Notes under the pieces: generated by a model
What the model was told of the DNA's origin: nothing
Database searches by the model: none
Seen by the model: only the letters and a program-made list of their open reading frames with translations
Part shown: piece by piece, positions 7,685-60,032 of the stretch
Layout: the number at the start of each line of letters is the position of its first letter
How positions within the stretch are numbered: position 1 is the first letter of the stretch
Assembly: GCA_947598285.1 (NCBI GenBank)
Contig: CANQFE010000002.1
Span: 1-61,104 of the forward strand
Source: an uncultured Bacilli bacterium
Lineage (GTDB): Bacteria; Bacillota_I; Bacilli_A; RF39; UBA660
Direction: 5' to 3'
Length of the DNA: 61,104 bases
Program-made: the position numbers and the translations under genes

Positions 7685-9913
7685 ATGAAAGAAGAACTTA
7701 AAGAAATTAAAAAGAAATATGGCGAAGAAATGGCTCACTTTTGTCGAGATCAGTTTGCAACACTTTTAGAAAAAGAAGGACTATTATCTTCGTTACTGTT
7801 TGAACATTTTGATGTAAGTCATGAATTATATAAAGATTTAAAGAATAACAATCTTTTATTTGGTTTTGTTCAGTATATTTATAGTTTTGCAGAAGAAAAG
7901 AAAAATTTTAAAAATGTTGATAAAACTCCTCAAGAACTTTTAAATTCTGTGGGTTATGAGTTATATGAATGTAAAACAGAGGGTGATATTCAAAAATTTA
8001 AAACATATTATGCCAAAGGAGAAGAACTATGTACTTTTCGTGGTGGAAGATTAAATATTTGTTATGTTTTCTTTGCTGTGAAAAAAAATGTGAATCAAAT
8101 TAAAAGAGAAAATTTTTCTCATCCTCAAAGACAAGACGAATATGGAACAAGTGTCATAAGTATTCAATTTAGTAAAAATACAAATCAATTATCTATAAAA
8201 AATAGATATAATCACACAGTAGATAATCCAGACAGTACATTTGGGAATAACTTAGACAATATTGTCGATGGTCTTACAGATGCTTTTCGAAAAATTTATG
8301 GACTTAAACAAAAAGAAATTCAAAGATTTGAAATTCCAGGATATGTTATGATAAATGGAAAATATTACAAATATAATTATGAAATTAATAATAATTACTA
8401 TTGTACGAATAATGTTTTTATTAAAAATGATCAAGTCATATCGTATCCCAAAGAAAGATATATTTTATTTGATTATTTCTTATTAGATTTAAGAGAAAAA
8501 AAGATCTGCTGTTTAGATAAAATTATAAATGATAGTTTTATTAATAGTATAGGAAAGATAAAAAATGTAAAAATAGAAAAAGAAAATGAATTTAAAAAAA
8601 TTATCATAAGAAATGAACATGAAAGTATTATAGAGATTGTTTTAAATCATGAAAATCAAATGATTAAATATTATAATAATGATGTAAAAGAAATTGGCAA
8701 TGATTTTTGTTATTATAATGAGACTATAGAAGAACTTTCTTTGCCTAATGTAAAAGTTATTTTAAATTATTTTCTGGGACATAATTTGGCTTTAAAAAAA
8801 CTTTTATTACCTAATGTATTAGAGATTAAAGATTATTTTCTTTGTCTGAATCAAATTTTATCAGATTTTGAAGCTTTTAAGTTAAAAACTATTGGAAATT
8901 GTTTTTGTGATGAAAATAACTCATTTAAAGTGCTAAATTTACCAAGTGTACAAACTATTGGAGATGATTTTTTACACTACAATCTATCTCTAGAAAAAAT
9001 TAGTTTACCTAGTGTTACGATGATAAGAAATGATTTTTGTTTTTGCAATCAAACATTAAAAAATTTTGAGGCACCCTGTTTAAAATATATTGGAAAAAAT
9101 TTTTGTCATAACAACCATTTTATGGAAAATATTTCTTTACCGAATGTTAAAATAATAGAAGAATGTTTTTGTTATCAAAATCAAGATCTTCGAAAAATAC
9201 ATTTGCCTAGTGTAGAAGTAATTGAATATGGTTTCTGTTTTGATAATGGATGTATAGAAGATCTTTTTTTGCCAAATATCCAAAATATAGGTTCTGACTT
9301 TTGTTTTCACAATCAAACATTAAAAAAAATTAGTTTGCCAAATGTTGTGCATATTGATAAAAATTTTTGCTATAAAAATGAAATATTGGAAAGTTTTGAA
9401 GCACCTAATTTGAAAAGTGTTGGAGATAATTTTTTGTGTTGTAATCAAAATTTAAAAATACTTAGTTTACCTAGTGTTATTAGAATCGGATGGAATTTTT
9501 GCCATAATAATGAAGATCTTTTTGAACTTTTGTTACCTAAAGTAGAGACTATTGGTGATTATTTCTGTAATTGGAATAATTCATTGACAGAACTTATTTT
9601 ACCCAAAGTGAAAACTATTGGAATTTCTTTTTGCTTTGAAAATAGGTCTCTTATACGATTTGAAGCTCCTAATTTGGAAACCATACATTGTGCTTTTTTA
9701 AAAAATAATCCTCGTTTGAAAATTTTAATAATGCCCAAGACTGGAAATGTAGAAACCAACCTAAATTTGCTATATGAAAGAATACCTGTAGATGTGTTAG
9801 TTTTAAAAGAAGAAGTGATGGCTAAAGATTATCCATTAATTTTGGAATATCAAAAAAGAAAATTAGAAGAAGAAATGAAAAAAAGAAATCAAGAACAAAA
9901 ACTAAAAAAATAA
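7685..9913 (+). CDS. Leucine-rich-repeat protein (BspA/TpLRR-like, Cys-rich repeats) with unknown ~330-aa N-terminal domain; no signal peptide
   Basis: About 16 tandem ~23-aa units of the form L-x-L-P-x-V-x-x-I-G-x-x-F-C-x-x-N-x-x-L. The N-terminus MKEELKEIKKKYGEEMAHF is hydrophilic. Confidence 0.8.
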   Translation: MKEELKEIKKKYGEEMAHFCRDQFATLLEKEGLLSSLLFEHFDVSHELYKDLKNNNLLFGFVQYIYSFAEEKKNFKNVDKTPQELLNSVGYELYECKTEGDIQKFKTYYAKGEELCTFRGGRLNICYVFFAVKKNVNQIKRENFSHPQRQDEYGTSVISIQFSKNTNQLSIKNRYNHTVDNPDSTFGNNLDNIVDGLTDAFRKIYGLKQKEIQRFEIPGYVMINGKYYKYNYEINNNYYCTNNVFIKNDQVISYPKERYILFDYFLLDLREKKICCLDKIINDSFINSIGKIKNVKIEKENEFKKIIIRNEHESIIEIVLNHENQMIKYYNNDVKEIGNDFCYYNETIEELSLPNVKVILNYFLGHNLALKKLLLPNVLEIKDYFLCLNQILSDFEAFKLKTIGNCFCDENNSFKVLNLPSVQTIGDDFLHYNLSLEKISLPSVTMIRNDFCFCNQTLKNFEAPCLKYIGKNFCHNNHFMENISLPNVKIIEECFCYQNQDLRKIHLPSVEVIEYGFCFDNGCIEDLFLPNIQNIGSDFCFHNQTLKKISLPNVVHIDKNFCYKNEILESFEAPNLKSVGDNFLCCNQNLKILSLPSVIRIGWNFCHNNEDLFELLLPKVETIGDYFCNWNNSLTELILPKVKTIGISFCFENRSLIRFEAPNLETIHCAFLKNNPRLKILIMPKTGNVETNLNLLYERIPVDVLVLKEEVMAKDYPLILEYQKRKLEEEMKKRNQEQKLKK
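8687..9785 (+). repeat. Tandem in-frame LRR-coding repeats (~69 nt unit, diverged)
   Basis: Periodic LPNV/LPSV...FC..N motifs in the translation of 7685-9913. Confidence 0.7.
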
Positions 9914-10031: not shown

Positions 10032-11102
10032 ATGAAAAATGAAAAAGTTTATTTTAGAAAAGATGGGCGTTACTATGCTCAGTATAAGAAAGGAGTGAAA
10101 GAAAATGGAAAAATATTTTATGGTTATATTTATGGTAAAACAAAAGAGGAAGTCTTAAATAAAAAAGAAAAGATGATAAATTCAAATTCAATTATTGATA
10201 AATCTTTATTTAGTGGAGATATTTTTAATTGGCTCAAAAGTATAAAAATATCTTGTAAAATATCTACTTATTCCAATTATGAATATACTTGTTATTCTCA
10301 TTTAATCCCTAACTTTGGTTTTTATAAACGAAGTCAAATCAATAGAAATATGATTGATGATTTTACACAGAAATTATTAAATAATGGTTTAGAATCAAAA
10401 ACAGTAAAAGATATTCTAATAGTTCTAAATCAAATTTTAAAATATGTGGGAATACATATAAATATTACAATGCCAAAAGTAAAGAAGAAAAAAATACAAA
10501 TTTTTTCAAAAGAAGAACAATTAAAATTTGAAAAATATCTTTCTCAAAATTTAAATGAAGATAGTTTAGGAATGTATTTAAGTTTATATACAGGACTTAG
10601 AATAGGTGAAATATGTGCTTTAAAATGGAAAAATATTGATTTAAAAGAAAATGTAATTCATGTTGAAAAAACTTTAATACGGGTTAAAAATTATGATAAA
10701 TTTATACCAAAAAAAACAGTGGTTATATTAGATGATCCAAAATCTTCGGCTTCAATTAGAGATATACCAATTCCTAGATTCTGTGTTTCCTTATTAAAAA
10801 AATATAAAAATGATGATGAAGTATTTCTTTTAACGGGAACAAAGGAATTTATTGAACCTCGAAGCTATGCAAATCATTTTAAAAATGTAATGAAAATTCT
10901 TCATATGGAAAAATATCATTTTCATATTTTAAGGCATACATTTGCAACAAGATGTGTTGAAAATAAAAGCAATATAAAAGCATTAAGTGAAATACTTGGT
11001 CATTCCAGTGTAAAAATCACATTAGAAAGATATGTACATCCTAGTTTTGATGAAAAAGTAAATATGATAAATCATTTAAGTCCATTAGTTACAATAGCAT
11101 AA
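10032..11102 (+). CDS. Tyrosine recombinase / phage- or Tn916-type integrase
   Basis: N-terminal arm-type DNA-binding motif (YFRKDGRYYAQYKKG...YGYIYGKTKEEV). Catalytic region LRIGEICALKW, HILRHTFATRC and LGHSSVKITLERYVH. Confidence 0.85.
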   Translation: MKNEKVYFRKDGRYYAQYKKGVKENGKIFYGYIYGKTKEEVLNKKEKMINSNSIIDKSLFSGDIFNWLKSIKISCKISTYSNYEYTCYSHLIPNFGFYKRSQINRNMIDDFTQKLLNNGLESKTVKDILIVLNQILKYVGIHINITMPKVKKKKIQIFSKEEQLKFEKYLSQNLNEDSLGMYLSLYTGLRIGEICALKWKNIDLKENVIHVEKTLIRVKNYDKFIPKKTVVILDDPKSSASIRDIPIPRFCVSLLKKYKNDDEVFLLTGTKEFIEPRSYANHFKNVMKILHMEKYHFHILRHTFATRCVENKSNIKALSEILGHSSVKITLERYVHPSFDEKVNMINHLSPLVTIA

Positions 11103-11103
11103 C

Positions 11104-11133
11104 AAAACTCAGCTCAAAATCGAACTGAGTTTT
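11104..11133 (+). terminator. Rho-independent terminator after the integrase
   Basis: AAAACTCAG (11104-11112) pairs with CTGAGTTTT (11125-11133). Confidence 0.7.
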
Positions 11134-11288
11134 ACTAAATTTATAGAGAGTATAAGTTCCTAAAGTTACTATCTACTTTAAATTCTTTATTTACTTTATA
11201 AAATTCTCATTGTGTTATATGTATTTCCTTTTTTCTATTCTTATTAAAAAGAAAAATATTATTAAAATTGATGCAGTGTGATATTTCT

Positions 11289-11355
11289 GTCAATTGACGT
11301 CTGGGGGGGGGGTAATTGATAAAATCATCATAAATAGGTATGGTGATTTTTTCAA
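11289..11355 (+). promoter_or_regulatory. Conserved promoter cassette, copy 1: palindrome/-35, poly-G spacer, extended -10, inverted repeat, SD
   Basis: GTCAATTGAC 11289-11298. TTGACG 11294-11299. G10 11303-11312. TGaTAAAAT with TAAAAT at 11320-11325. Inverted repeat AAAATCATCA (11321-11330) / TGGTGATTTT (11341-11350). GGTGAT Shine-Dalgarno. Near-identical cassettes occur at 27358 and 29683. Confidence 0.6.
11303..11312 (+). repeat. Homopolymeric G10 tract
   Basis: Ten consecutive G read directly from the sequence. Confidence 0.95.
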
Positions 11356-12723
11356 ATGAAATTACAAAGATTTAAAGAAAAAAATAAGAAGAAACAAAGA
11401 ATTATAGTATTTACCATAGCTTGTGTGTTATTAATCACAGGAGTTTTCTTGTATAAAACATTTGCAAGTTTTCAAGTGATCGAAAATGAAGATTTCATTA
11501 ATGGAGATATAAACGACCCAGGAGATATTTACTTTGCTTTTTATAAAGATAATGTGATCCAAAAAGATATGCCAAAAAAGAAAGATGGATATGTCTTAGA
11601 TGAAAGTAAAAGTTATTGTGGAGTCACAGGTGGAAATGACTCTGATATCAAAGTACATGTTACGGAAAATGATATGATTTTTGTAGAAGGAGTCACGACA
11701 TCAAGAACAAAATGTAATTTGTATTTTATAAAAGGAGCCTATATCTTAGGTAAAGGAGTTCCCTTAGCTTCAGAAGGAGAAGATGGACTTTATGAAGTTC
11801 CTCATGGAACAGAAGTTTCAGGAACAATCAATGATACAGGATTTCAACAAATTGAATATAGATATGCCGGAAAGAGTCCAAATAACTATATTAGATTTAA
11901 TGATGAAGATTGGCGGATCATCGGTTTAGTAAATGTATTGACAACCAATGGAACAGTAGAACAAAGAGTCAAGATTGTAAAAGATGATTCAATTGGAGAG
12001 TATAGTTGGGATAGTTCATTACCAAATGTGGATTTTGGATATGGAGTGAATGAATGGACTGAAGCGGACTTAAAAACGGAATTAAATGAGTATTATTTAA
12101 ATAGTACTTCTGGAACTTGTTATATAAATAACAATAATACTTCTCAGCCTTGTGACTTTACTCAAACAGGCATCAAAAATAATTATAAAGGTTTTATAGA
12201 AGAAGTTATTTGGAATACCGGAACAAATGGAGACACCAATTTTTCGTATCTAAACTCAACCAATCAAATTTATGAACTAGAAAGAAGTTCAAATTTAAGT
12301 GACCTATGTAAATCAGAAGAAAATGATTATAGGTGTAATGATGACGTACAGAGAAAGGCAAGTTGGCAAGGAAAAATAGGTTTAATGTATCCAAGCGATT
12401 TTGGTTATGCAACAATTGGTGTTGCTAATGGAGTTTCATGCAAAACTATGAATTTTGATAATTGGGAAAATAACAGTGATTGTTTTGATAACGATTGGTT
12501 ATTTATTAAAAATGGAGAACAATGGTTATTGACACCCAATTCTAATCCAACATATGGATATACTGTATATTATCAGACTTCGACGGGACGTTTAGGGTAT
12601 CATCCGGCTTATTTTCCTAAAAATGTTAAGCCCACCTTTTATTTAAAACCAAATGTAAAAATTATTAGTGAAGGAGATGGTAGTGAAGATAATCCATTTC
12701 AACTAGTTCAAATTTTAAAATGA
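11356..12723 (+). CDS. Secreted/surface protein paralog A (N-module A + C-module X)
   Basis: N-terminal basic region plus hydrophobic segment (IIVFTIACVLLITGVFLYKTFASFQV). N-terminal ~127 aa closely match ORF 29749. The C-terminal ~310 aa match ORF 27424 (EYRYAGKSPNNYIRFNDEDWRIIGLVNVL, YPSDFGYA, PTFYLKPNVKI). Confidence 0.85.
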   Translation: MKLQRFKEKNKKKQRIIVFTIACVLLITGVFLYKTFASFQVIENEDFINGDINDPGDIYFAFYKDNVIQKDMPKKKDGYVLDESKSYCGVTGGNDSDIKVHVTENDMIFVEGVTTSRTKCNLYFIKGAYILGKGVPLASEGEDGLYEVPHGTEVSGTINDTGFQQIEYRYAGKSPNNYIRFNDEDWRIIGLVNVLTTNGTVEQRVKIVKDDSIGEYSWDSSLPNVDFGYGVNEWTEADLKTELNEYYLNSTSGTCYINNNNTSQPCDFTQTGIKNNYKGFIEEVIWNTGTNGDTNFSYLNSTNQIYELERSSNLSDLCKSEENDYRCNDDVQRKASWQGKIGLMYPSDFGYATIGVANGVSCKTMNFDNWENNSDCFDNDWLFIKNGEQWLLTPNSNPTYGYTVYYQTSTGRLGYHPAYFPKNVKPTFYLKPNVKIISEGDGSEDNPFQLVQILK

Positions 12724-12874: not shown

Positions 12875-13927
12875 ATGCAAACTGTAAAAAAGTATAGTTG
12901 GTCTGTTTGTTTATTTTTAATTTTACTTTTTGGAACTTATTATTTTGTTTTAAAAGATTATTCGATTCAAACTTTTTTTGATTCTGTTTCTCATTGTCAT
13001 TTTTTCTTTTTATTTTTGGCTTTTCTTGCATTATTTGGTTATTGCTTTTTTGCAGCAGTTTATTTTAAAAGAATTTTAAAATATTTTGGAAAAAAGATTA
13101 ATTGGTATCAAGCTTTTGGGTATCATTTTACCGAAGTTTATTTTTCAGCGATTACGCCAAGTAGTATTGGAGGACAGCCTGTACAAATGGTAGAGATGAA
13201 TAAAGATCATATTCCTTATCGAATCAGTACAGTTTTAATTTTATTAAATACTCTTATTTATAAAATTGCTTTACTTACTGTCGCGGTGATTGGTTTTGTT
13301 TTTTGCTCTCATTTATTATTTTCGCAAAATGCTTTGTTTGTTTGGCTTTTTCTTTTAGGTTTTATTACAACGGTTTTCTTGATTCTTTTTTTTCTTGCTT
13401 TAGTTTATTCAAAAAAATTAGTTCGAAAGACTGCTGATCTTTTATTTCGATTAGGAAGAAAGTTAAAACTTAAAAAAATAGATGATTGGCAAGCGAAGTT
13501 TGAAGAAGCTTTTCAAGGATATCAGGAATGTGCCAAGTTGACCAAACAAAATCCTCGGATTTTACTAGAAGCATATCTTATTTTGCTTTGCCAAAGAGTT
13601 TGTTTACTTTCTATTTGTTATTTTATTTATTTATCTTTTGGACTTCGTGAGTTTAATATTATTCAAATTTTAGCTTTTCAATCTTGTATTACTTTGGCAA
13701 GTGATTTTATGCCTTTTCCAGGTGGTTTAGTTGTGAGCGAAGGATTATTATTACAAATTAATCAATTTATTTATGGATCTTCTTTAGCAACATCGGCTAT
13801 GATTTTATTTCGAAGTGTTAGTTTCTATTTTATTGTTATTTTCAGTGGTATTTTCTATCTATTTTTTCATTTTATGAAACGTAAAAAAGCAAATGATTTT
13901 GAAATAGAAGGGAAAGAAGAAGTGTGA
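12875..13927 (+). CDS. UPF0104 / MprF-flippase-like (lysylphosphatidylglycerol synthase TM region family) membrane protein
   Basis: Multi-pass hydrophobic protein with YFSAITPSSIGGQPVQ, typical of this family. AGGTGA RBS before ATG 12875 (ORF track start 12866). Confidence 0.75.
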   Translation: MQTVKKYSWSVCLFLILLFGTYYFVLKDYSIQTFFDSVSHCHFFFLFLAFLALFGYCFFAAVYFKRILKYFGKKINWYQAFGYHFTEVYFSAITPSSIGGQPVQMVEMNKDHIPYRISTVLILLNTLIYKIALLTVAVIGFVFCSHLLFSQNALFVWLFLLGFITTVFLILFFLALVYSKKLVRKTADLLFRLGRKLKLKKIDDWQAKFEEAFQGYQECAKLTKQNPRILLEAYLILLCQRVCLLSICYFIYLSFGLREFNIIQILAFQSCITLASDFMPFPGGLVVSEGLLLQINQFIYGSSLATSAMILFRSVSFYFIVIFSGIFYLFFHFMKRKKANDFEIEGKEEV

Positions 13928-14301
13928 AGAAGGGATTTACATTAATAGAACTTATTATTACCATTGGTTTAATCGCGGCTGTCGGAACTATTGTTGTCGC
14001 GAATATGAGCAGTACTTTAAGTAGGGAGCAAGATACTCAATATCAAATGTTTGTCAAAAAGTTAGAGAATGCCGCTTGTACTTATGTGGAATTAAAAGTA
14101 TTTCAAGAAACTTATGGGGTAAATCAAAAAGAAACTTGTAAAAATTCATCTTGTACAATAAAAGTAAAAGATCTTTTAGATTCTGGTTTAATAGAAGAGA
14201 AAGATTTAAAGGATCCTAAAATTCAAGATTACATTTCTTCTAATACTTCAATTCGAATTAGTTATCCTGGACAAGTGAAAACGTGCACCTATCAAGGATA
14301 A
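13924..14301 (+). CDS. Type IV prepilin / pseudopilin
   Basis: MKKG|FTLIELIITIGLIAAVG is a prepilin cleavage/methylation motif with Glu at +5. The GTG start overlaps the upstream TGA (GTGA). Confidence 0.85.
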   Translation: MKKGFTLIELIITIGLIAAVGTIVVANMSSTLSREQDTQYQMFVKKLENAACTYVELKVFQETYGVNQKETCKNSSCTIKVKDLLDSGLIEEKDLKDPKIQDYISSNTSIRISYPGQVKTCTYQG

Positions 14302-14504: not shown

Positions 14505-14568
14505 ATTCTTTTTTTGATACTTTTTCTTTTCACTTGAAAAGTGATGGACAATATGTTATATTGAATAC

Positions 14569-14691
14569 AGATGAAGGAAACTTCATAAAATAAAAAAAGG
14601 AAGGCATTCGTGCTCACATGCTAATGCCTGCCTAATATTTTAAGGTTTGGCATTTAATCTTTTAAATAAAGATTAAGTGCCATTTTCATTT
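14569..14691 (+). ncRNA. Candidate antisense small RNA (type I antitoxin-like), copy 1
   Basis: Promoter TTGAAA (14534-14539)-17 nt-TATATT (14557-14562) with TG at -15/-14. 5' hairpin ATGAAG-GAAA-CTTCAT (14571-14586). Hairpin AGGCATT/AATGCCT (14602-14629). Terminator hairpin 14649-14681 plus a U-rich tail. The architecture is conserved at 29372-29489. Confidence 0.45.
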
Positions 14692-27357: not shown

Positions 27358-27423
27358 GTCAATTGACCTCTGGGGGGGGGGTAATTGATAAAATCATCAT
27401 AAGTAGGTATGGTGATTTTTTAA
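27358..27423 (+). promoter_or_regulatory. Conserved promoter cassette, copy 2
   Basis: GTCAATTGAC 27358-27367. TTGACC 27363-27368. G10 27372-27381. TGaTAAAAT with TAAAAT at 27389-27394. Same inverted repeat and SD as copy 1. Confidence 0.6.
27372..27381 (+). repeat. Homopolymeric G10 tract
   Basis: Ten consecutive G read directly. Confidence 0.95.
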
Positions 27424-29322
27424 ATGAAACTAAAAAATAAAAAAATAATTATAGTATTCAGTATCTTGGTATTAATATGTACAATGGCAGGTGTAAGCTA
27501 TGCTGTCTGGCAAATGACATTAACCCAAGAAGATGATAATTTAATTACATCAAGTTGTTTTCAAGTGACCATGACAGAGAAAAATCCAATTAGTTTACAA
27601 AATGCAATTCCAATCACAGAGCAAGATGGAGAATCTTTAGTTCCTTATACCTTTACCATTCATAATGAATGTGGAGAAAATGCCTTGTATGAAATTCATT
27701 ATGAAATATTAAATAATACAACATTTACTGAAAAAGAAGAACAAGAATTTATTAAAATTAAGTTCCAAGAAGAAAAACCAAAGTTCTTAAATAGTTTAGA
27801 CAAAACAGACAAAACATTAAACAATGCAAGTAGAGCATATGTGATTGAAAGAGGATATATCAAAGCAAATGAAACAAAAAACTATGAATTAAAAGTATGG
27901 TTAGATGAAAACGTGACAGTAGATGATGGTGTTATGGGAAAAATATTTGCAAGTGAAGTAACAATCACAGCCAGATATGACAGAGAAATCCTAACAAGTC
28001 CAGAAGTAGAGTTAGTATTAAGTAGGTGTAGTGATGATATCATAGCAAGTGTTAAGACAAGTGGAAATGTAATAGATACTTATGAATACACAATAGATAG
28101 TGAAGATGCAATAACTGAAAATGAGGCAACACATACGTTTACAGATCAAGGAAGAGGAACAAGGCATCATGTTAAAGTAAAAGTAACAGATGTTTATGGA
28201 AATATAACAGAAAAAGAAGGAGATATAGAAATACCAGAATATCCAACATTACTAGGAAAGCAAATAGGAAAAGATATAGAAGTAGTTACAGAAGGAGAAG
28301 GCTTATATGAAGTAACACATTGTGAAGGAACAATAGAGAATGATGAATTAACAGATGTTCAAAAAGAAGGATTCTTATTAGAAGAATACCGATATGCAGG
28401 AAAGAATCCAAATAATTATATTACATTTAATGATGAAGAATGGCGAATTATCGGTTTAGTAAATGTATTAGTATCTCAAGCTGATGGAAGCGAAAAGGTA
28501 GAACAAAGAGTAAAAATTGTAAAAAATGAAAGCATCGGACAATATAGTTGGGATACTTCACCATCAGATGTCAATAGTGGTTGGGGAGTAAATGAATGGA
28601 GCCAAGCAGATTTAATGAAGTTACTAAACCCTGGATATGAGAACAATCAAGATAAAGATAGTAATGGCTCCGATATTAAAGTCAATAATAGTCTATATTG
28701 GACTGGTGAAAGCGGTAATTGTTATAGTTCTTCTAGAAATCAAAAAAAATCATGTGATTTTGCAAATGGTTTAAATGATGTAGATTCCTATATTGCAAAT
28801 GATATTATATGGAATACAGGAGCAAATCAAAATAATGAAAAATATACTCAATTAAAAGCAAGCGATTTTTATTTAGAAGAGAGATCTAATGGAATTGGAA
28901 AAAATTGCCAACCTAATGATACTTATGTTAATGATTCTGGTACATCATATCATCTTTGTACGGATAGTGTAGAAAGGAAGACAACATGGGAGGGGAAAGT
29001 CGCTTTACTCTATCCGAGTGACTATGGTTATGCATCTGGTGATAGATCATGTTTGGATAGTTATCTTTATAATTGGAGTAGCAACGACTGCTATCAGCAA
29101 AATTGGCTTTTTCAGGAAAAAGATATTTGGACATTAACGACTGGTACTTCAATATATTCTGCTGCAAGTTATATCTTTTTTATTCGATATTTAGGTCATG
29201 TTCCTATGCATTCTGCAGAAACTGGATATTATGTATTCCCAACATTATATTTAAAACCCGAGATAAAAATTGTCAATGGCGAAGGGAAAGCTGATGGTTC
29301 ATATGAATTATCAGAAAATTAA
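27424..29322 (+). CDS. Secreted/surface protein paralog B (distinct N-module + C-module X)
   Basis: Signal-anchor MKLKNKKIIIVFSILVLICTMAGVSYAVWQ. Central beta-rich region. The C-terminal ~340 aa match ORF 11356 (EYRYAGKNPNNYITFNDEEWRIIGLVNVL, YPSDYGYA, PTLYLKPEIKI). Confidence 0.85.
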   Translation: MKLKNKKIIIVFSILVLICTMAGVSYAVWQMTLTQEDDNLITSSCFQVTMTEKNPISLQNAIPITEQDGESLVPYTFTIHNECGENALYEIHYEILNNTTFTEKEEQEFIKIKFQEEKPKFLNSLDKTDKTLNNASRAYVIERGYIKANETKNYELKVWLDENVTVDDGVMGKIFASEVTITARYDREILTSPEVELVLSRCSDDIIASVKTSGNVIDTYEYTIDSEDAITENEATHTFTDQGRGTRHHVKVKVTDVYGNITEKEGDIEIPEYPTLLGKQIGKDIEVVTEGEGLYEVTHCEGTIENDELTDVQKEGFLLEEYRYAGKNPNNYITFNDEEWRIIGLVNVLVSQADGSEKVEQRVKIVKNESIGQYSWDTSPSDVNSGWGVNEWSQADLMKLLNPGYENNQDKDSNGSDIKVNNSLYWTGESGNCYSSSRNQKKSCDFANGLNDVDSYIANDIIWNTGANQNNEKYTQLKASDFYLEERSNGIGKNCQPNDTYVNDSGTSYHLCTDSVERKTTWEGKVALLYPSDYGYASGDRSCLDSYLYNWSSNDCYQQNWLFQEKDIWTLTTGTSIYSAASYIFFIRYLGHVPMHSAETGYYVFPTLYLKPEIKIVNGEGKADGSYELSEN

Positions 29323-29371
29323 AGTTATGATTTTCCTTGAAAAACAAGGTAAAAAGTGATAAAGTGTATAT

Positions 29372-29489
29372 AGATGAAGGAAACTTCATAAAATAAAAAA
29401 GGAACATTCAATGTCGCATGTTGAGTGTTGCCAATATAAGTTGGTATCACCTAAATCATTATTGCTGAGTTAGGTGATTCTTTTATTTT
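29372..29489 (+). ncRNA. Candidate antisense small RNA (type I antitoxin-like), copy 2
   Basis: Promoter TTGAAA (29337-29342)-17 nt-TGaTAAAGT (-10 at 29360-29365). 5' hairpin identical to copy 1 (29374-29389). Hairpin AACATTCAA/TTGAGTGTT (29403-29429). Terminator ATCACCTAA/TTAGGTGAT (29446-29478) plus TCTTTTATTTT. Confidence 0.45.
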
Positions 29490-29566
29490 AGGATTACAAA
29501 TAGTAATATTATAAGTAAAAGGATAATGATAATCAAAAAGAAAATTAAAAAATCCTTCTTGTTCAT
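29483..29566 (-). CDS. Small hydrophobic peptide, type I toxin-like (27 aa, MNKKDFLIFFLIIIILLLIILLFVILK)
   Basis: GGGAGGTG RBS 7 nt upstream of the ATG. Minus-strand TGtTATAAT (-10 at 29635-29630). Minus-strand terminator formed by hairpin 29403-29429 plus a U-run. Confidence 0.45.
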   Translation of the reverse strand: MNKKDFLIFFLIIIILLLIILLFVILK

Positions 29567-29682: not shown

Positions 29683-29748
29683 GTCAATTGACCTCTGGGG
29701 GGGGGTATTTGATAGAATCATCATAAATAGGTATGGTGATTTTTTCAA
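29683..29748 (+). promoter_or_regulatory. Conserved promoter cassette, copy 3
   Basis: GTCAATTGAC 29683-29692. TTGACC 29688-29693. G9 29697-29705. TGaTAGAAT with TAGAAT at 29713-29718. Same inverted repeat and SD. Confidence 0.6.
29697..29705 (+). repeat. Homopolymeric G9 tract
   Basis: Nine consecutive G read directly. Confidence 0.95.
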
Positions 29749-31611
29749 ATGAAACTACAAAAGTTTAAAGAAGAAAAGAAAAATCAAAAAAGTATCATAA
29801 TCTTTACCATAGCTTGTGTATTACTAATCACAGGAGTTTTCTTATATAAAACATTTGCAACTTTTCAAGTCATCGAAAATGAAGATCTTATTAATGGAGA
29901 TGTAAGTGATCCAGGAGATATCTATTTTGTATTCTATAAAGATAATCAATTAACCAAAGAAATGCCTCAAAAAGGAACAGGATATGCTTATGATTATGAA
30001 AAAAGTCATTGTGAAGTTCCAGGAAAAGAAGAAAGTAAAGCAGTACCATACTTTGATAGTATTGATTGGAGTGTAACAGTAAGAGGAATGACAGAAAGAC
30101 CAACAAAATGTACAATCTATTTTTATCAAGGATATCAAGAAGGAATATTAAAAGGAGCAGACCCAGTGTTAGAAAGACCATTAGTACCAGTGCATATTGA
30201 TGAGAAAGGCAAAGTTACCAAAGCAGATCCAAGTGAAGAGTGGTATAACTATGAACAAAAAGAATGGGCGAATGCAGTGATATTAGTAGATGAAACAAAG
30301 CAATATGAAGAAAATGAAATCATAGAAGAAAAAGATATAGAAAGTTATTTTGTATGGATCCCAAGATATCGATATCAATTAAAAGAAAGTGAAGCAACAT
30401 TTAATACTTATAGTTCCATCATGAATCCAGAAACATATAAGATTCAAAATGTCGAAGAATTTTATTCAAAAATAGAAGGAGGGAACAAAGGAAAAAATGA
30501 AGCCTTTGTAATAGAATTTGAAAACATAACAGAAACACCAAGTGATGGAACAAATGAAGAGAAATGGTTAACCCATCCAGCATTCACATCATTTAATAGT
30601 AATGGATTCTGGGTAGGAAAATTTGAAACGGGATATAATCAAAGTGATAATTCAACAAAAGAAATTACAACAACTAATTGGACCAAAGCAAATGCAGAAA
30701 ATACTAGCAATACGAATAAAGAAGAACCAACAAAAGTCATCATCAAACCAAATGTGTATAGTTGGAGAAATATCAATGCATCGAATGCCTTTTATACAAG
30801 TTATAATTACCAAAGAGAATTAGAAAGTCATATGATGAAGAATACCGAATGGGGAGCAGTAGCTTATTTATCCCAAAGTAAGTATGGAAGATGCAATGGT
30901 TCAACTTGTGAAGAAGTAAGGATCAATAATAATGGTAATTATATTACGGGGTATAGTGCCAAAAATGCCCCAACGGTAGGAACTTCGGCATACAATAATA
31001 CAGATTCAGTGACTTTAAATCAAGATGGAACGAATGGATATCATTATGGTAGCAATAATGCCTCTAAACAAGAGTCAAGTACAACAGGAAATTATAGTGG
31101 AATCTATGATATGAGTGGTGGAGCTTATGAATATGTGATGGGAATGATGAAAGGAAGTACCACCACTTCTTCACCAGCAAGTGGAGCAAATAAAGATTGG
31201 AATTCAGGATTTAAAGGCTTATATAGTGATTGTAACGAGAATGGAGGTTCTATTGAATGTAATGGTAATATAATGAATACAACAGGCAAGGATTGGCCAA
31301 ATAGCAAATATTACGATTTATATGATCATAAAACAACAAGCGTAGAATACCAAAGAGGTTATTTAGGAGATGCTACAAAAGAATTTGGTCCATTCTATTC
31401 AGTAAATTGGCTAAAAGAAGGTAGTTCTTATAGCACAAGATATGTTGGAAGTTATAACGCAAACGAATCGTACTTTGTGCGTTCTGGCGCTCCATGGTTT
31501 ATACGTGGTTCAGTTTATTCAGGAGGGACAGATGCAGGAGTTGGAGCATTCAATGCCAACACTGGAGGTGTGGTTAAAGATTACAGTTTCCGCGTTGTTT
31601 TAACACCTTAA
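29749..31611 (+). CDS. Secreted/surface protein paralog C (N-module A + distinct C-module Y)
   Basis: The first ~128 aa are nearly the same as ORF 11356. The C-terminal ~350 aa are different and carry motifs FWVGKFETG, NTEWGAVAYLSQSKYG, YDMSGGAYEYVMG and WFIRGSVYSGG, reminiscent of an FGE-sulfatase/C-type-lectin-like fold. Confidence 0.85.
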   Translation: MKLQKFKEEKKNQKSIIIFTIACVLLITGVFLYKTFATFQVIENEDLINGDVSDPGDIYFVFYKDNQLTKEMPQKGTGYAYDYEKSHCEVPGKEESKAVPYFDSIDWSVTVRGMTERPTKCTIYFYQGYQEGILKGADPVLERPLVPVHIDEKGKVTKADPSEEWYNYEQKEWANAVILVDETKQYEENEIIEEKDIESYFVWIPRYRYQLKESEATFNTYSSIMNPETYKIQNVEEFYSKIEGGNKGKNEAFVIEFENITETPSDGTNEEKWLTHPAFTSFNSNGFWVGKFETGYNQSDNSTKEITTTNWTKANAENTSNTNKEEPTKVIIKPNVYSWRNINASNAFYTSYNYQRELESHMMKNTEWGAVAYLSQSKYGRCNGSTCEEVRINNNGNYITGYSAKNAPTVGTSAYNNTDSVTLNQDGTNGYHYGSNNASKQESSTTGNYSGIYDMSGGAYEYVMGMMKGSTTTSSPASGANKDWNSGFKGLYSDCNENGGSIECNGNIMNTTGKDWPNSKYYDLYDHKTTSVEYQRGYLGDATKEFGPFYSVNWLKEGSSYSTRYVGSYNANESYFVRSGAPWFIRGSVYSGGTDAGVGAFNANTGGVVKDYSFRVVLTP

Positions 31612-32010: not shown

Positions 32011-33636
32011 ATGAATGTCGAAGCTGGTAATTCTATGAATCAAACACCATTAAAGCCTTTGAAATATCCTGGATTAGGTTTATTCATGTCTTTTAAATAT
32101 GTTGTTGAAGTAATTATTTATATTATAAAATGTGCTTGGAGAGGTTTTTTATATCTATTTAAAGATATTCCTTCTTCTTTATGGCAACATGCAAGTGGTA
32201 AAGTAGATGAAGCATATCGCGGAACAAAAGTTGCTATAGAAAAAGTTCAAAATAAAGAGGAATCATCGTCTAAGAAAAGTATTTTGAACATGGATTTGAA
32301 TGATCTTTTCAAAAATTCAAAATATATGAAGAAGAAAATTCAAGCATTAGAGCGAGAAAAACTTTTACTATTAGAAGATTTAAAAGGAGCAGGCGGTATC
32401 CGTAGTAAAGAACCTAATATTTATCGCTTTACTGCTAAAAATCCAGAAGGTAAAATTGAAACAGGAATTATTAATGGATATTCAAAGTTAGATGTGAATA
32501 CTTTTTTGGTTCAAGATGGTTATGATGTTTATAAAATCGAAACAAATCAAATGATTGATTTTTTCTATGGTCAATCGAGTATTTTTGCACCTAAATTAAA
32601 AAATAAAGATTTACTTTTTTGGTTAACTCAATTGTCTACTTATTTGAAAAGTGGTCTTACATTATCTGATTCCATTCGAATTTTAAACCAACAAATGAAT
32701 AAAAAAACAACTTATAAAAGAGCTTTTCAAGCAATTGTTTATGAGCTTACGATGGGAGAATCTTTTTCGACAGCCTTGGAAAAACAAGGAGGCATGTTTC
32801 CAGCATTACTCATTAATATGATTAAGGCGGCTGAAGCAACTGGCGAATTAGAGGAAACGCTTGAAGATATGGCCAATTATTATGAAGAAATTGAAAAAAC
32901 AAGAAAACAAATGTTATCTGCATTGACTTATCCATCTGTTATTATGGTATTTAGTTTAGCAGTTGTAACTTTTATTATGTTATTTGTTATTCCAGAATTT
33001 GTTAAAGTTTATGATGATGCTGGGGCAGAAATATCTGGAATTACTTTGTTTGTTTTAAATATGAGTAATTTTTTACAAAAGAATATTGTCTTATTAATTA
33101 TTATTTTTTGTTTCATTCTTTTAGTATTAATTTATTTTTATAAAAATGTGAAGGCCTTTCGAAAAAGTGTTCAACAATTTGCAATGAAACTACCTGTAGT
33201 GGGAAATATAATCATTTATAATGAAATGACAATTTTTTCTAAAACATTTTCTTCTTTATTACGAAATAATGTTTTTATTACGGATAGTATTGATATTTTA
33301 AGTAAAATTACAAATAATGAAATTTATAAAGAGATTATGTATAATACTATCAATAACATTGTAAAAGGTGAAAAAATTAGTACAGCTTTTAAAGATCAAT
33401 GGGCTATTCCTGATGTCGCATATTTTATGATTGTTACAGGAGAATCAACTGGACAGCTTGCTGAGATGATGGCTAAGGTTAGTTCTTATTATCAAGAGTT
33501 GCATCGAAATATTATTAATAGTTTAAAGTCATTTATTGAACCAATTATGATTTCTTTTTTGGCTTTAGTCGTTGGAGGAATTATTTTAGCAGTTATTGTA
33601 CCAATGTTTAAACTTATGCAAATTGTTGAGATGTAG
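32011..33636 (+). CDS. pilC: Type IV pilus / T2SS platform protein (GspF/PilC family) with ~135-aa N-terminal extension
   Basis: Two GspF-type repeats with three TM segments. The typical start YRFTAKNPEGKIETG appears only at about aa 138. GGGAAGGG RBS. Confidence 0.85.
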   Translation: MNVEAGNSMNQTPLKPLKYPGLGLFMSFKYVVEVIIYIIKCAWRGFLYLFKDIPSSLWQHASGKVDEAYRGTKVAIEKVQNKEESSSKKSILNMDLNDLFKNSKYMKKKIQALEREKLLLLEDLKGAGGIRSKEPNIYRFTAKNPEGKIETGIINGYSKLDVNTFLVQDGYDVYKIETNQMIDFFYGQSSIFAPKLKNKDLLFWLTQLSTYLKSGLTLSDSIRILNQQMNKKTTYKRAFQAIVYELTMGESFSTALEKQGGMFPALLINMIKAAEATGELEETLEDMANYYEEIEKTRKQMLSALTYPSVIMVFSLAVVTFIMLFVIPEFVKVYDDAGAEISGITLFVLNMSNFLQKNIVLLIIIFCFILLVLIYFYKNVKAFRKSVQQFAMKLPVVGNIIIYNEMTIFSKTFSSLLRNNVFITDSIDILSKITNNEIYKEIMYNTINNIVKGEKISTAFKDQWAIPDVAYFMIVTGESTGQLAEMMAKVSSYYQELHRNIINSLKSFIEPIMISFLALVVGGIILAVIVPMFKLMQIVEM

Positions 33637-33644
33637 GTGGGGAT

Positions 33645-34409
33645 ATGAATTTTTATTATGCTTTTTTATTCTTTCTTTTGGGGAGCGTTTTAGCTTCTTT
33701 TTATGGAGTTGTCGCGACGCGACTTCCTCAAAATCAATCGCTTATTAAGCCTAGGAGTCATTGTGTAAAATGTCATCATGTTCTTTCATGGTATGAATTA
33801 ATTCCTATTTTTTCGTTTCTTTTTTTGAAAGGAAAATGTCGTAAATGTCATGAAAAATTATCTATTTATGAACCAATTATGGAGTTTTTGCTAGGACTTT
33901 CTTTTAGTATGTCTTATCTTTTTTTTGGTTTTAGTTATTCATTATGGATGTCTTTGATTCTTCTTTCTTTAGTTTGTCTTATTTTTGTTAGTGATTTTCA
34001 ATATATGATTATTTTAGATTCACCTTTAGTTATTTCAAGCTTTCTTATTTTTGGTTTAAAATGGTATTATTTTGGAATTTCTGAAGCTTGGAATGCTTTA
34101 GAGGATGGAGTAATTTTGTTTTTGATTTTTCTTTTTATTGGATATCTTGGGAGTCTTCTTTTTAAAAGAGAAGCTCTTGGAGGAGGGGATATTAAGCTTT
34201 CGTTTGTAATGGGGTTATCTTTATCTACTCCTTATGCTTTAATGGCACTTATTTTATCTACTTTTCTTGCTTTACCTTATGCTACATTTAGCCTTTGTAG
34301 TACTAATGAAAGGGAAGTTCCATTTGGGCCTTTTTTAGTGGCTGCTTTGGCAATTGTTTTTTTCTTTCAAGATAAATTTGCTTATATTTTAGAGTTATTT
34401 CGTTTTTAA
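33645..34409 (+). CDS. pilD: Prepilin peptidase (A24 family)
   Basis: CVKCHH...CRKCHE zinc motif, GGGDIKL active-site motif, polytopic. Confidence 0.9.
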   Translation: MNFYYAFLFFLLGSVLASFYGVVATRLPQNQSLIKPRSHCVKCHHVLSWYELIPIFSFLFLKGKCRKCHEKLSIYEPIMEFLLGLSFSMSYLFFGFSYSLWMSLILLSLVCLIFVSDFQYMIILDSPLVISSFLIFGLKWYYFGISEAWNALEDGVILFLIFLFIGYLGSLLFKREALGGGDIKLSFVMGLSLSTPYALMALILSTFLALPYATFSLCSTNEREVPFGPFLVAALAIVFFFQDKFAYILELFRF

Positions 34410-34427
34410 TAAAAAAAGAAACATTTT

Positions 34428-35747
34428 TTAAATGTCTAATGTTTCTAAATCTAATGTTTCAGCGTTCATTTTAAGATTATTTTCTGGTATTTTGTCTTCT
34501 TTTTCTTTTTGCTCACGCCCAATAATTGCGTCTTTTAAAGCTTTTTGTTCTTCACCTAAATCATCTTCAATATCAATGACTCTTAAAACTTCTTCAAAAC
34601 TTGTTAAACCATTGATGACTTTTATTAAACCATCGTCCAGAAGACTAATGGTATTTTTATTTTGATAAATTAAACTACGAATTTTTTCTTTTGTTTCATT
34701 GTTTACGATGGCATCTCTAATTTCTTGATTTAAAATTAAGACTTCTTGAAGAGCAATTCGGCCTTTATATCCATTGATACAATCTGGACAACCCACAGGT
34801 TTATAAATTTGATTCATATCAATTCCTAAAGCAGTTTTGAAAACTCTTTTTTCGTAAGGAGTTGTTTCTCTTGCTTCTCGACATTTCGGACATAGTTTTT
34901 TACATAGTCTTTGCGAGATAATCGCTTCCAGAGCTGAACCTAAAAGATAACGTTCTACATCCATGTCTACTAAACGTTCAATGGTTGTTAATGAGTTATT
35001 GGTATGGATTGTAGATAATACTAAATGTCCTGTGATACTTGCTCGAACGGCAATTCGGGCTGTTTCATTATCACGAATTTCACCAATCATAATGATATCT
35101 GGATCTTGACGTAAAATGGAACGAAGAGCACTAGCAAATGTTAAACCAATTTCACTCATGGTTTGAACTTGATTGATTCCAGATATTTTCATTTCGACAG
35201 GGTCTTCTACAGTAATAATATTTCTTTCAATGGTGTTTAATTGTTGTAAAATAGCATACACGGTAGTCGATTTTCCGGTTCCGGTCGCACCTGTTACTAA
35301 AATAATTCCGTTTGGTTTGGCAATTGCTTTTTGAACTTTCTCTAAATTTTCATCAGAAAATCCTAATGTATCAAGACTACTTAGGGAAGAAGAATAGTCA
35401 AGTAAACGAACAACAACTTTTTCGCCGTATACAATTGGAAGAGTAGAAACACGAAGGTCTAAATCTTTTCCATCGACTTGCATTTTAATTGCTCCATCTT
35501 GAGGAACTCTTGATTCTGTAATATTCATTCCAGAGATAATTTTTACTCTAGTGACTAGATTTTTTTTTACACTTTCGGGAACTTTGGCATATAAAAGTAA
35601 TTCGCCATCAATCCGAATACGAACATTTAAAACATCTGGAGTAGGATCAAAATGGATATCACTAGCTCTTTTTCTAGCGGCATCGATGAGCATATTATTT
35701 ACGATATCGACAATTGGCTGATTGGTATAATCATATTCTGTAAACAT
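34428..35747 (-). CDS. pilB: Type IV pilus assembly ATPase (GspE/PilB family)
   Basis: Walker A GATGTGKSTT, Asp/His boxes and tetra-Cys motif CPKC...CPDC. Convergent with pilD. Confidence 0.9.
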   Translation of the reverse strand: MFTEYDYTNQPIVDIVNNMLIDAARKRASDIHFDPTPDVLNVRIRIDGELLLYAKVPESVKKNLVTRVKIISGMNITESRVPQDGAIKMQVDGKDLDLRVSTLPIVYGEKVVVRLLDYSSSLSSLDTLGFSDENLEKVQKAIAKPNGIILVTGATGTGKSTTVYAILQQLNTIERNIITVEDPVEMKISGINQVQTMSEIGLTFASALRSILRQDPDIIMIGEIRDNETARIAVRASITGHLVLSTIHTNNSLTTIERLVDMDVERYLLGSALEAIISQRLCKKLCPKCREARETTPYEKRVFKTALGIDMNQIYKPVGCPDCINGYKGRIALQEVLILNQEIRDAIVNNETKEKIRSLIYQNKNTISLLDDGLIKVINGLTSFEEVLRVIDIEDDLGEEQKALKDAIIGREQKEKEDKIPENNLKMNAETLDLETLDI

Positions 35748-59126: not shown

Positions 59127-60032
59127 TCATTCCTTTTCTTTTCTTTTTCTTGGATGTGATTCGTCATATTCTTTTTTTATTTCTTCTTTACTTAAATGAG
59201 TATAAATTTGAGTTGTGGAAATACTACTGTGACCTAATAATTCTTGAATAACTCTTAAATCAGCACCATTTTGAAGTAAATGAGTGGCGAAAGAATGTCT
59301 TAAAACATGAGGACTAATTTCTTTTTTGATTCCTGTTTCCTCACAGACTTTTTTTAATAGTTTAAAAAGACCTTGTCTTGTTATTTTAGTTCCACGATTA
59401 TTTAAAAAGATTTCGTCGGGATTTTTTTGATGCTTTATCAGTTGAGGTCTATATTCATCAAGATAAAGTTCTAAGTAGTATTTACTGGTTTCGTTAAAGG
59501 GAATGATTCTTTCTTTTTTGCCCTTCCCTTCTACTCTTATTAATTCAGATGCAAAATCAATATTAGAAAATTTTAAAGAAATTAATTCAGAAATTCGCAT
59601 TCCTGTTGCGTATAGTAATTCTAACATGGCTTTTGTACGATAATCATAGATTGTTTTTAAGGGCATATTTAATAATCTATCTACTTCTTCATAAGTTAAA
59701 AATAAAGGTAATTTTTGAGGAATTTTAGGCATAGGAATTGTATTACAAGGGTTTTTTTTCATTTTTTCATTTTCTAAGCAAAATTGATAAAAATTATGTA
59801 AAACTGTAAACCGATGAGCTTTGGTAGTTTTTGCATCTTGGTTTTGGTGAATTAAGAAGGATTCTATGTCTTTTCTTTCGACATTTAATGGATTTTTTCC
59901 TTTTAAATATTTTTGAAATAGAAATAAATCATTTTGATATGATTTGATGGTATTTTCACTTAATTTTTTTTCATATTTTAAAGTTTCTATATATTGATTA
60001 AAATCTGAATTTAACTGTTCTTTTTTTTTCAT
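59127..60032 (-). CDS. xerD: Tyrosine recombinase XerD/XerC
   Basis: ATGMRISELISL, HVLRHSFATHLLQNGADLRVIQELLGHSSISTTQIYTHL. About 300 aa. Confidence 0.85.
   Translation of the reverse strand: MKKKEQLNSDFNQYIETLKYEKKLSENTIKSYQNDLFLFQKYLKGKNPLNVERKDIESFLIHQNQDAKTTKAHRFTVLHNFYQFCLENEKMKKNPCNTIPMPKIPQKLPLFLTYEEVDRLLNMPLKTIYDYRTKAMLELLYATGMRISELISLKFSNIDFASELIRVEGKGKKERIIPFNETSKYYLELYLDEYRPQLIKHQKNPDEIFLNNRGTKITRQGLFKLLKKVCEETGIKKEISPHVLRHSFATHLLQNGADLRVIQELLGHSSISTTQIYTHLSKEEIKKEYDESHPRKRKEKE

Follow-up and report, generated by a model that had tools for sequence, protein, structure and literature searches.

Poly-G promoter cassettes as a candidate phase-variation switch for lectin-like surface proteins of uncultured gut Bacilli

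What might a run of nine or ten guanines do in the middle of a predicted promoter, three times over, in the core chromosome of an organism of 29% GC? The question is raised by a contig of an uncultured Bacilli bacterium (GTDB lineage RF39; UBA660; contig CANQFE010000002.1 of assembly GCA_947598285.1), of which we analyzed positions 1 to 61,104, called the window here. Three copies of a unit of ~70 nt, the cassette, lie in the window immediately upstream of three genes (A, B and C) for predicted surface proteins, and each copy carries a G tract between its predicted -35 and -10 hexamers. Comparisons within the species and with related metagenome-assembled genomes (MAGs) make it probable, in our judgment, that the cassettes are SigA/RpoD-type promoters with a hypermutable poly-G tract in the spacer, and that they switch transcription of the surface-protein genes.

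The cassette has the order TTGAC (-35), TCT, G9-10, TGnTAAAAT (extended -10), leader, GGTGAT and ATG. In copy A, the palindrome GTCAATTGAC (11289-11298, plus strand) overlaps the predicted -35 hexamer TTGACG (11294-11299) and is followed by TCT (11300-11302), the G10 tract (11303-11312), TAAT (11313-11316), the predicted extended -10 TGATAAAAT (11317-11325, with the hexamer TAAAAT at 11320-11325), the Shine-Dalgarno (SD) sequence GGTGAT (11342-11347) and the start codon ATG at 11356; re-reading the sequence confirmed all of these positions as given in an initial annotation of this DNA. The spacer from TTGACG to TAAAAT, TCT-G10-TAATTGA, is 20 bp long. Cassette B (27358-27426, plus strand) likewise has a 20-bp spacer, with TTGACC at 27363-27368, G10 at 27372-27381, TGATAAAAT at 27386-27394, and, after the leader, ATG at 27424. 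The initial annotation had placed further copies at 27358 and 29683 with the tract in the same position, which is correct as to recurrence and position; the third copy differs in having G9, a TAGAAT -10 and a 19-bp spacer. This cassette C (29683-29751, plus strand) comprises TTGACC (29688-29693), G9 (29697-29705), TGATAGAAT (29710-29718), the leader and ATG at 29749. All three copies are thus in direct orientation, each with a complete predicted promoter and ATG.

Alignment shows that homology among the cassettes sets in abruptly at TGTCAATTGAC, and the similarity of copy B ends a few bases past the ATG. Across the cassettes of different species TTGAC and TGnTAnnnT are kept and the palindrome GTCAATTGAC is not. 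The three tracts, singled out by the initial annotation as the only long G/C homopolymers it had noticed, are indeed the sole G or C runs of seven or more on either strand of the whole window. Counted as overlapping windows of seven Gs they give 11 occurrences against 0.52 expected, a number reached in none of 100 shuffles, and the 36-nt leader occurs three times against an expectation of zero. Two other promoter candidates were rejected. TTGATA-17-TATGGT, found with 9/12 matches in a consensus scan allowing spacers of 16-18 bp, would leave a 5-nt leader with no SD sequence. A match on the minus strand follows from the palindrome, and the number of matches in the scan equals the shuffle expectation.

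In the switch that we propose, slipped-strand mispairing during replication would alter the number of Gs, and the G count would shift the near-consensus TTGAC -35 into or out of register with the extended -10. Register at 17-18 bp would correspond to about G7-G8 in copies A and B, so that the spacers as sequenced (20, 20 and 19 bp) would imply a low or OFF state at the three loci; the initial annotation had read the long spacer as OFF or weak, which is reasonable since tract-less promoters of the same gene family use 17-18 bp. The RpoD protein encoded in the window has regions 2, 3 and 4, and recognition of a -35, an extended -10 and a -10 element is therefore expected. Expression of the downstream membrane-anchored lectin-like protein would thereby be switched or graded, stochastically and heritably. 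Because the window tracts sit 44 nt 5' of the ATG, outside the open reading frame (ORF) and not where an intragenic frameshift switch would have them, switching would be transcriptional. The cassette would then be one of two forms of contingency device in the clade, the other having its tract a few codons inside the ORF.

Relatives of the family offer a view of how the tract behaves over a wider range. Protein A has 2372 homologs, all unnamed and all from MAGs or metagenomes. For comparison, one genome per species was scanned, which returned 80 loci (310 kb). They belong to MAGs labeled uncultured 'Bacilli' or 'Tenericutes' that come from the guts of rabbits, of Hadza and other humans, and of chickens (Candidatus (Ca.) Ventrenecus, whose NCBI lineage is 'Bacteria incertae sedis'); some of the genomes hold 15 or more paralogs. 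Every run of eight or more Gs in the 310 kb (25/25) marks the 5' end of a family gene and is in the sense orientation, as are the three in the window, and C runs of comparable length were absent from the 310 kb; read along the sense strand, each of the 28 tracts consists of G and never of C. The promoter-type design, defined as TTGAC, 0-6 nt, G5-G13, 1-10 nt and TGnTAnnnT, was present at 18 relative loci, making 21 with the three window copies. Three further promoter-type tracts were seen, two of them downstream in L011 and L047 and one in L095.

The initial annotation had suggested comparing tract length in related genomes, and the lengths do vary, from G5 to G13: the 21 promoter-type tracts comprise fourteen of G10 and one each of G5, G6, G7, G8, G9, G11 and G13. 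Their spacers span 14-22 bp with a mode of 20 bp (nine cases; 17 bp once and 18 bp twice), and the position of the tract within the spacer varies among relatives. Where promoters of this family lack a tract, the spacer measures 17 bp (12 cases), 18 bp (three), 19 bp (one, L045, with a G5 remnant) or 23 bp (one), so that the clade norm is 17-18 bp, and the G-tract promoters lie 2-5 bp beyond it. The family does pass through the optimum, reaching 17-18 bp at L011, L036 and L060 (18 bp in the last); the window's own loci have been seen only at 19, 20 and 23 bp. Within a single MAG, Lapin-008 bin31, four of the loci shown are G10 with 20 bp, L011 is G8 with 18 bp and L036 has 17 bp. A scan of a viral collection with the pattern TTGACN{0,4}GGGGGGN{0,20}TGATAAAATCAT gave no matches.

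Six loci (L047, L051, L053, L056, L059 and L080; Hadza and UMGS1217 MAGs) carry the second form, with G9-G11 inside the ORF, 6-13 codons after an ATG that has a good ribosome-binding site. As assembled, all six of these coding-type tracts in the species-representative MAGs are out of frame. Alleles in the databases are of three kinds, namely in frame (...SDSGGGVLL...), truncated at an internal Met, and with an interrupted tract. At one orthologous locus with identical flanks, L093 has G10 and is in frame (the same protein being recorded on three contigs), L094 and L109 have G9 and are out of frame, and in six samples (L087-L092) the tract is replaced by GGAGGTAGA and is thus 'locked'. Because G10, G9 and interrupted alleles occur at this single orthologous locus, the comparison shows that the 5' G tracts of this family do change length in nature, with the expected consequences as read from the alleles. 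Taken together, the loci with coding-type tracts, L087-L094 and L109 included, come from Hadza, UMGS1217 and Ca. Ventrenecus-like MAGs, and allele states differ among samples. Gene callers give truncated or shifted starts at coding-type loci (P0105, P0111, P0112 and P0114), and, if the switch is real, MAG gene calls for the family need care for this reason.

Within the window's own species, the other assemblies are 99.8-100% identical to the window, enabling a direct comparison of tract lengths. Cassette A was G10 in four of four assemblies (the window, ERZ27249467, ERZ27249462 and ERR10663700). Cassette B was G10 in the window, ERZ27249462, ERZ27249252, ERR10663699 and ERR10663701, and G9 in ERZ27249467. 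Cassette C, which is G9 followed by T in the window, was G13 in ERZ27249462. A fourth cassette, on another ERZ27249252 contig (L095), has G10 and a 20-bp spacer. Over ~23.5 kb of pairwise comparison, insertions or deletions (indels) were found only at G tracts, in 2/7 tract comparisons, and in 0/10 comparisons of A/T runs of eight or more. These data are suggestive of length polymorphism at the window's own loci. The initial annotation had recognized in the spacer tract a classic phase-variation design; recurrence in many related species, lengths of G5-G13 and the confinement of same-species indels to the tracts all support it.

The genes behind the cassettes are, by alignment, mosaics. Gene A (11356-12723, plus strand; 455 residues) is modeled as an enlarged C-type-lectin-like domain preceded by a beta domain and, at the N terminus, a transmembrane helix. 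Gene B (27424-29322, plus strand; 632 residues) has an unrelated N-terminal part, and its residues 281-631 are 39% identical to residues 131-455 of A. Gene C (29749-31611, plus strand; 620 residues) is the converse, with residues 1-128 being 59% identical to residues 1-130 of A and the C-terminal part being different. As the genes are mosaic and have no coding part common to all, the cassette is the only thing that all three share. Neither this mosaic structure nor the leader fold-back described below was part of the initial annotation. The recorded gene calls for B and C differ from the ORFs, and B was found again via P0121.

None of the three proteins has a Pfam or NCBIfam match, and a profile search of solved structures by sequence gave no meaningful relative of A. 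The AlphaFold (AF2) model of A (predicted local distance difference test score, pLDDT, 83.5) forms a transmembrane helix from residues 11-35, ahead of a beta domain, and has a large domain at the C terminus. A Foldseek search with this model gave a single significant match, to the immunoglobulin A (IgA) peptidase of Thomasclavelia ramosa (chain 9qa6, E 2e-8, 333 aligned columns); the two are 15% identical, and the metallopeptidase domain of the peptidase is absent from A. The N-terminal domain of the T. ramosa enzyme is described as an enlarged C-type-lectin-like domain (PMC12237041). To judge from size and fold, the matched part of 9qa6 is most likely this domain, the Foldseek output being without an aligned residue range. 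It is plausible that A is a surface-exposed protein, given its predicted extracellular beta and lectin-like domains. A SipW-type signal peptide, considered because the TFAxF motif resembles SipW-cognate signal peptides, was rejected, there being no NCBIfam match even at E values up to 10.

Differences among samples were also seen in and around the genes. A contig of ERZ27249462 (L107), compared with window positions 10032-11420, is identical across the integrase gene, the intergenic region and cassette A, and after the ATG it continues into another paralog's coding sequence (MKLQKFKERNNKQKY...); the A-run 5' of the ATG is one base shorter than in the window. As judged from the aligned contig, this is a gene replaced behind a constant cassette. 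Five clustered substitutions at window positions 27615-27651, inside B, are found in L097 and L098, which are otherwise identical over 4-6 kb; they may reflect gene conversion over a short stretch of B's N-terminal domain. Four contigs from other samples (L102-L105), traced via the downstream GspF-like gene, break off within gene C, each at a different point. In several other cases (L018, L020 and L003; L100, L101 and L108) a contig or unitig begins or ends a few bases from a G tract. Ends at the cassette fit coexisting tract lengths and are equally explained by the cassette being a repeat. Because family and cassette fragment assemblies in this way, copy numbers in MAGs are likely to be underestimates.

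Several observations weigh against a length switch, and some of them favor a tract of fixed length, i.e., a structural spacer or factor-binding site within a weak or factor-dependent promoter, with length differences being noise. Both own-species polymorphisms come from assemblies at about 4.4-4.7x coverage, a contig ends 27 nt away from the G13 of cassette C, and long G runs are where Illumina indel errors concentrate; the own-species evidence is therefore suggestive, not conclusive. On a fixed-length reading, such variant calls (from ~4.5x-coverage assemblies) would be noise, and G10 is indeed constant in 4/4 assemblies for A and 5/6 for B; outside the window, 9/11 orthologous observations were unchanged. 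G10 is also the mode in many species and strongly predominates among promoter-type tracts (14/21). Furthermore, the spacer bases on the two sides of the tract add up to 10 nt in several species, by different arrangements (3+7, 2+8, 1+9 and 0+10), which looks, in this comparison, like selection for 20 bp at G10; the loci with this sum are the window cassettes, L005, L007, L008, L011, L015, L054 and L077, and G10 gives them exactly 20 bp. G10 is also 2-3 slips from the presumed ON length (17-18 bp), and the ON and OFF states of porA and opc are 1-2 units apart. In addition, the TGn extended -10 may make the -35 and its spacing dispensable and so give basal transcription, and a scan of Joint Genome Institute (JGI) metagenomes with the cassette pattern gave no further copies, the five matches being chance G6 runs in unrelated coding genes. 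On the other hand, a fixed-length element does not account for tracts of G5-G13 and spacers of 14-22 bp, nor for a tract whose position in the spacer is not constant. The same family has equally long tracts inside ORFs, where only slippage makes sense, and there ON as well as OFF alleles occur, each of them recurring across independent samples; A/T runs of eight or more are invariant. Overall we regard a fixed-length element as unlikely, though less so for the window's own loci.

Another reading takes the cassette to be mainly a recombination substrate, at which a tyrosine recombinase or homologous recombination would swap genes behind a fixed site, the G tract being incidental. Surface-protein genes are shuffled in this manner in Mycoplasma vsa/mpl-type systems. 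A tyrosine recombinase gene (10032-11102) does adjoin cassette A, in L107 an unchanged integrase gene and cassette A lead into another paralog, the three genes are mosaic, and contigs from other samples break inside gene C. However, the cassettes are all in direct orientation, each with its own complete promoter and ATG, and a search for flanking inverted repeats gave nothing more than AT-rich chance matches. At none of the 80 related loci do the 1.5-kb flanks contain the recombinase, and recombination would leave both the G tracts and the coding-type tracts unexplained. We consider it very unlikely that this is the cassette's main role; gene exchange itself probably coexists with the switch. 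An inverton or shufflon was likewise rejected, given the direct cassettes, the lack of significant flanking inverted repeats and a recombinase that is unlinked in the 80 related loci. Spacers of 19-20 bp are a hallmark of MerR-family promoters, and the window cassettes match it, which would fit a regulator that twists the DNA to realign the hexamers irrespective of tract length. But here the spacer is homopolymeric with no dyad operator, no regulator gene is adjacent in the window, and relatives have spacers of 17, 18, 21 and 22 bp, so that MerR-like activation is improbable in the extreme.

If the G tract is a slippage switch of this sort, transcripts entering from upstream would bypass it, and the leader has a feature that bears on such transcripts. 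In cassette A an inverted repeat spans 11316-11355 (plus strand; arms 11316-11332 and 11339-11355), with counterparts in cassettes B (27385-27423) and C (29709-29748). The 3' arm consists of the SD sequence GGUGAU and a U-run, and the 5' arm of the -10 hexamer and discriminator. Read-through RNA (11300-11358) has a predicted folding energy of -14.8 kcal/mol (z -3.8), and none of 200 shuffles folds as well; RNA from the predicted start (~11332) is unstructured. Across 14 cassettes of several species, 92-94% of cells are paired in the stem, compared to 28-63% in slid controls. Two to three stem pairs show compensatory changes (e.g., C-G, A-U and U-A at one position), with a covariation score that none of 500 shuffles attains. 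Tolerance of U-G wobbles suggests that it is the sense-strand RNA that pairs.

Given where the -10 lies, transcription is expected to start near 11331-11333, within or after the 5' arm. RNA from the cassette's own promoter would thus lack the 5' arm and be translatable, and read-through RNA would fold back, hide the SD sequence and keep OFF tight. Fold-back would be most relevant to B, because cassette B starts 13 nt after the trmK stop codon with no terminator between, and read-through could come, for example, from dnaG-rpoD-trmK. A precedent is the fold-back inhibition of IS10/Tn10, in which translation of transposase is blocked on read-through transcripts. The likeness lies in a 3' arm that covers the ribosome-binding site, a 5' arm at or before the element's own expected start, and silencing of read-through RNA only; unlike in IS10/Tn10, the start is a predicted one, and the setting is that of a candidate phase-variable promoter rather than of a transposase. 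By this analogy, we infer an IS10-like fold-back that silences read-through transcripts, possibly a new accessory feature of such a switch. Matches to Rfam 15 do not point to a known RNA family or riboswitch in the cassette: no family reached the gathering score in the whole window, and the cassette region gave only a chance microRNA match (E 0.53).

Paralogs that have no tract appear to be controlled in another way. Each of the tract-less paralogs (L012, L014, L016, L022, L023, L025, L028, L032, L038, L049 and others), in the rabbit MAGs Lapin-004 bin27, Lapin-026 bin92, Lapin-007 bin30 and Lapin-008 bin31, has a divergent small gene of 67-115 residues, mostly 76-81, and the four of these that were scanned are all XRE/HTH_3 regulators. 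Each of them also has a TTGAC-17-TATAAT promoter spanned by a palindrome of its own. On gene content and promoter layout, this one family thus seems to have one dedicated repressor per paralog in some genomes and G tracts in others.

The window is core chromosome, with valS, hrcA-grpE-dnaK-pepF-dnaJ, dnaG-rpoD-trmK, obg and lepA, and it also carries a type IV pilus or Com-like gene set. The cassette genes are interleaved with genes for a prepilin-type protein, a GspF-like protein, a prepilin peptidase and a T2SSE ATPase (13924-14301; 32011-35747). The tyrosine recombinase gene directly upstream of cassette A (10032-11102, plus strand) has a relative at 59127-60032 (minus strand), the two being 32% identical over the catalytic domain, and a BspA-type leucine-rich-repeat protein is encoded upstream of this integrase gene (7685-9913). 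Divergent from cassette C, a 27-codon ORF with a strong SD sequence (29486-29566, minus strand) encodes a very hydrophobic peptide, MNKKDFLIFFLIIIILLLIILLFVILK. A direct repeat of 70 nt (79% identity; 14528-14597 and 29331-29400), ending in GATGAAGGAAACTTCATAAAATAAAAAA, lies 3' of a pilin-like gene and 3' of gene B, where it has the look of a terminator module common to the two.

The cassette can be compared with the systems closest to it in function. In the vlp family of Mycoplasma hyorhinis, which comprises multiple surface-lipoprotein genes, each promoter spacer contains a poly-A tract. As in vlp, the present genes form a multigene surface family of a related lineage (Bacilli/Mollicutes-like), in which each member's own promoter and leader with homopolymer would allow independent switching; unlike in vlp, the tracts are poly-G, the proteins are transmembrane-anchored and lectin-like rather than repeat lipoproteins, and the genes are dispersed in the core chromosome rather than clustered. 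Intragenic poly-G contingency genes are familiar from Campylobacter jejuni, Neisseria and Haemophilus. The sister-lineage genes with G9-G11 placed 6-13 codons after the ATG resemble these in their in- and out-of-frame alleles and in a typical length of about 9-10, whereas the window tracts lie upstream of the ATG.

Two more of the functionally closest systems, N. meningitidis porA and T. pallidum tp0126, have their poly-G tract in the spacer that separates the -35 from the -10; in tp0126, transcription is at its best with 17 bp. Both are summarised in PMC7864442, which surveys T. pallidum poly-G tracts. The cassette shares with them a poly-G tract in a sigma-70-type spacer that sets spacer length, and a surface or outer-membrane product. 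It differs in its host, an uncultured low-GC gut Bacilli, in its TGn extended -10, in a commonest state (G10, 20 bp) that is 2-3 units from the optimum, and in being portable and placed before mosaic genes. What the cassette has in common with porA, tp0126 and vlp alike is a tract between predicted hexamers, length polymorphism between samples and a predicted surface product. The initial annotation was not aware of this cassette or gene family being described as phase variable, and our literature search similarly gave no description of phase variation in this clade or family. We are thus inclined to see a known kind of switch in a new lineage and a new gene family.

More tentatively, the observations could be joined into a clade-wide 'phasome' serving a large family of mosaic lectin-like proteins, in which a poly-G promoter cassette, a frameshift switch in sister lineages and fold-back of read-through RNA would be three layers that have not been described together, with one divergent XRE-type repressor per paralog elsewhere in the clade. 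Through those repressors, the clade would have another way of limiting expression to one or a few paralogs at once. Phase variation by way of repeats has been described chiefly in pathogens, among them Neisseria, Haemophilus, Campylobacter, Helicobacter, Treponema and the mycoplasmas; here the device is found in abundant uncultured gut commensals of rabbits, chickens and humans, before members of a family of >2000 unnamed, predicted lectin-like surface proteins. If the switch operates as proposed, these commensals would vary their surfaces stochastically in the gut, with a bearing on IgA targeting, phage receptors and colonisation, and metagenomic reads would reveal directly, through tract length, which paralogs are ON in vivo.

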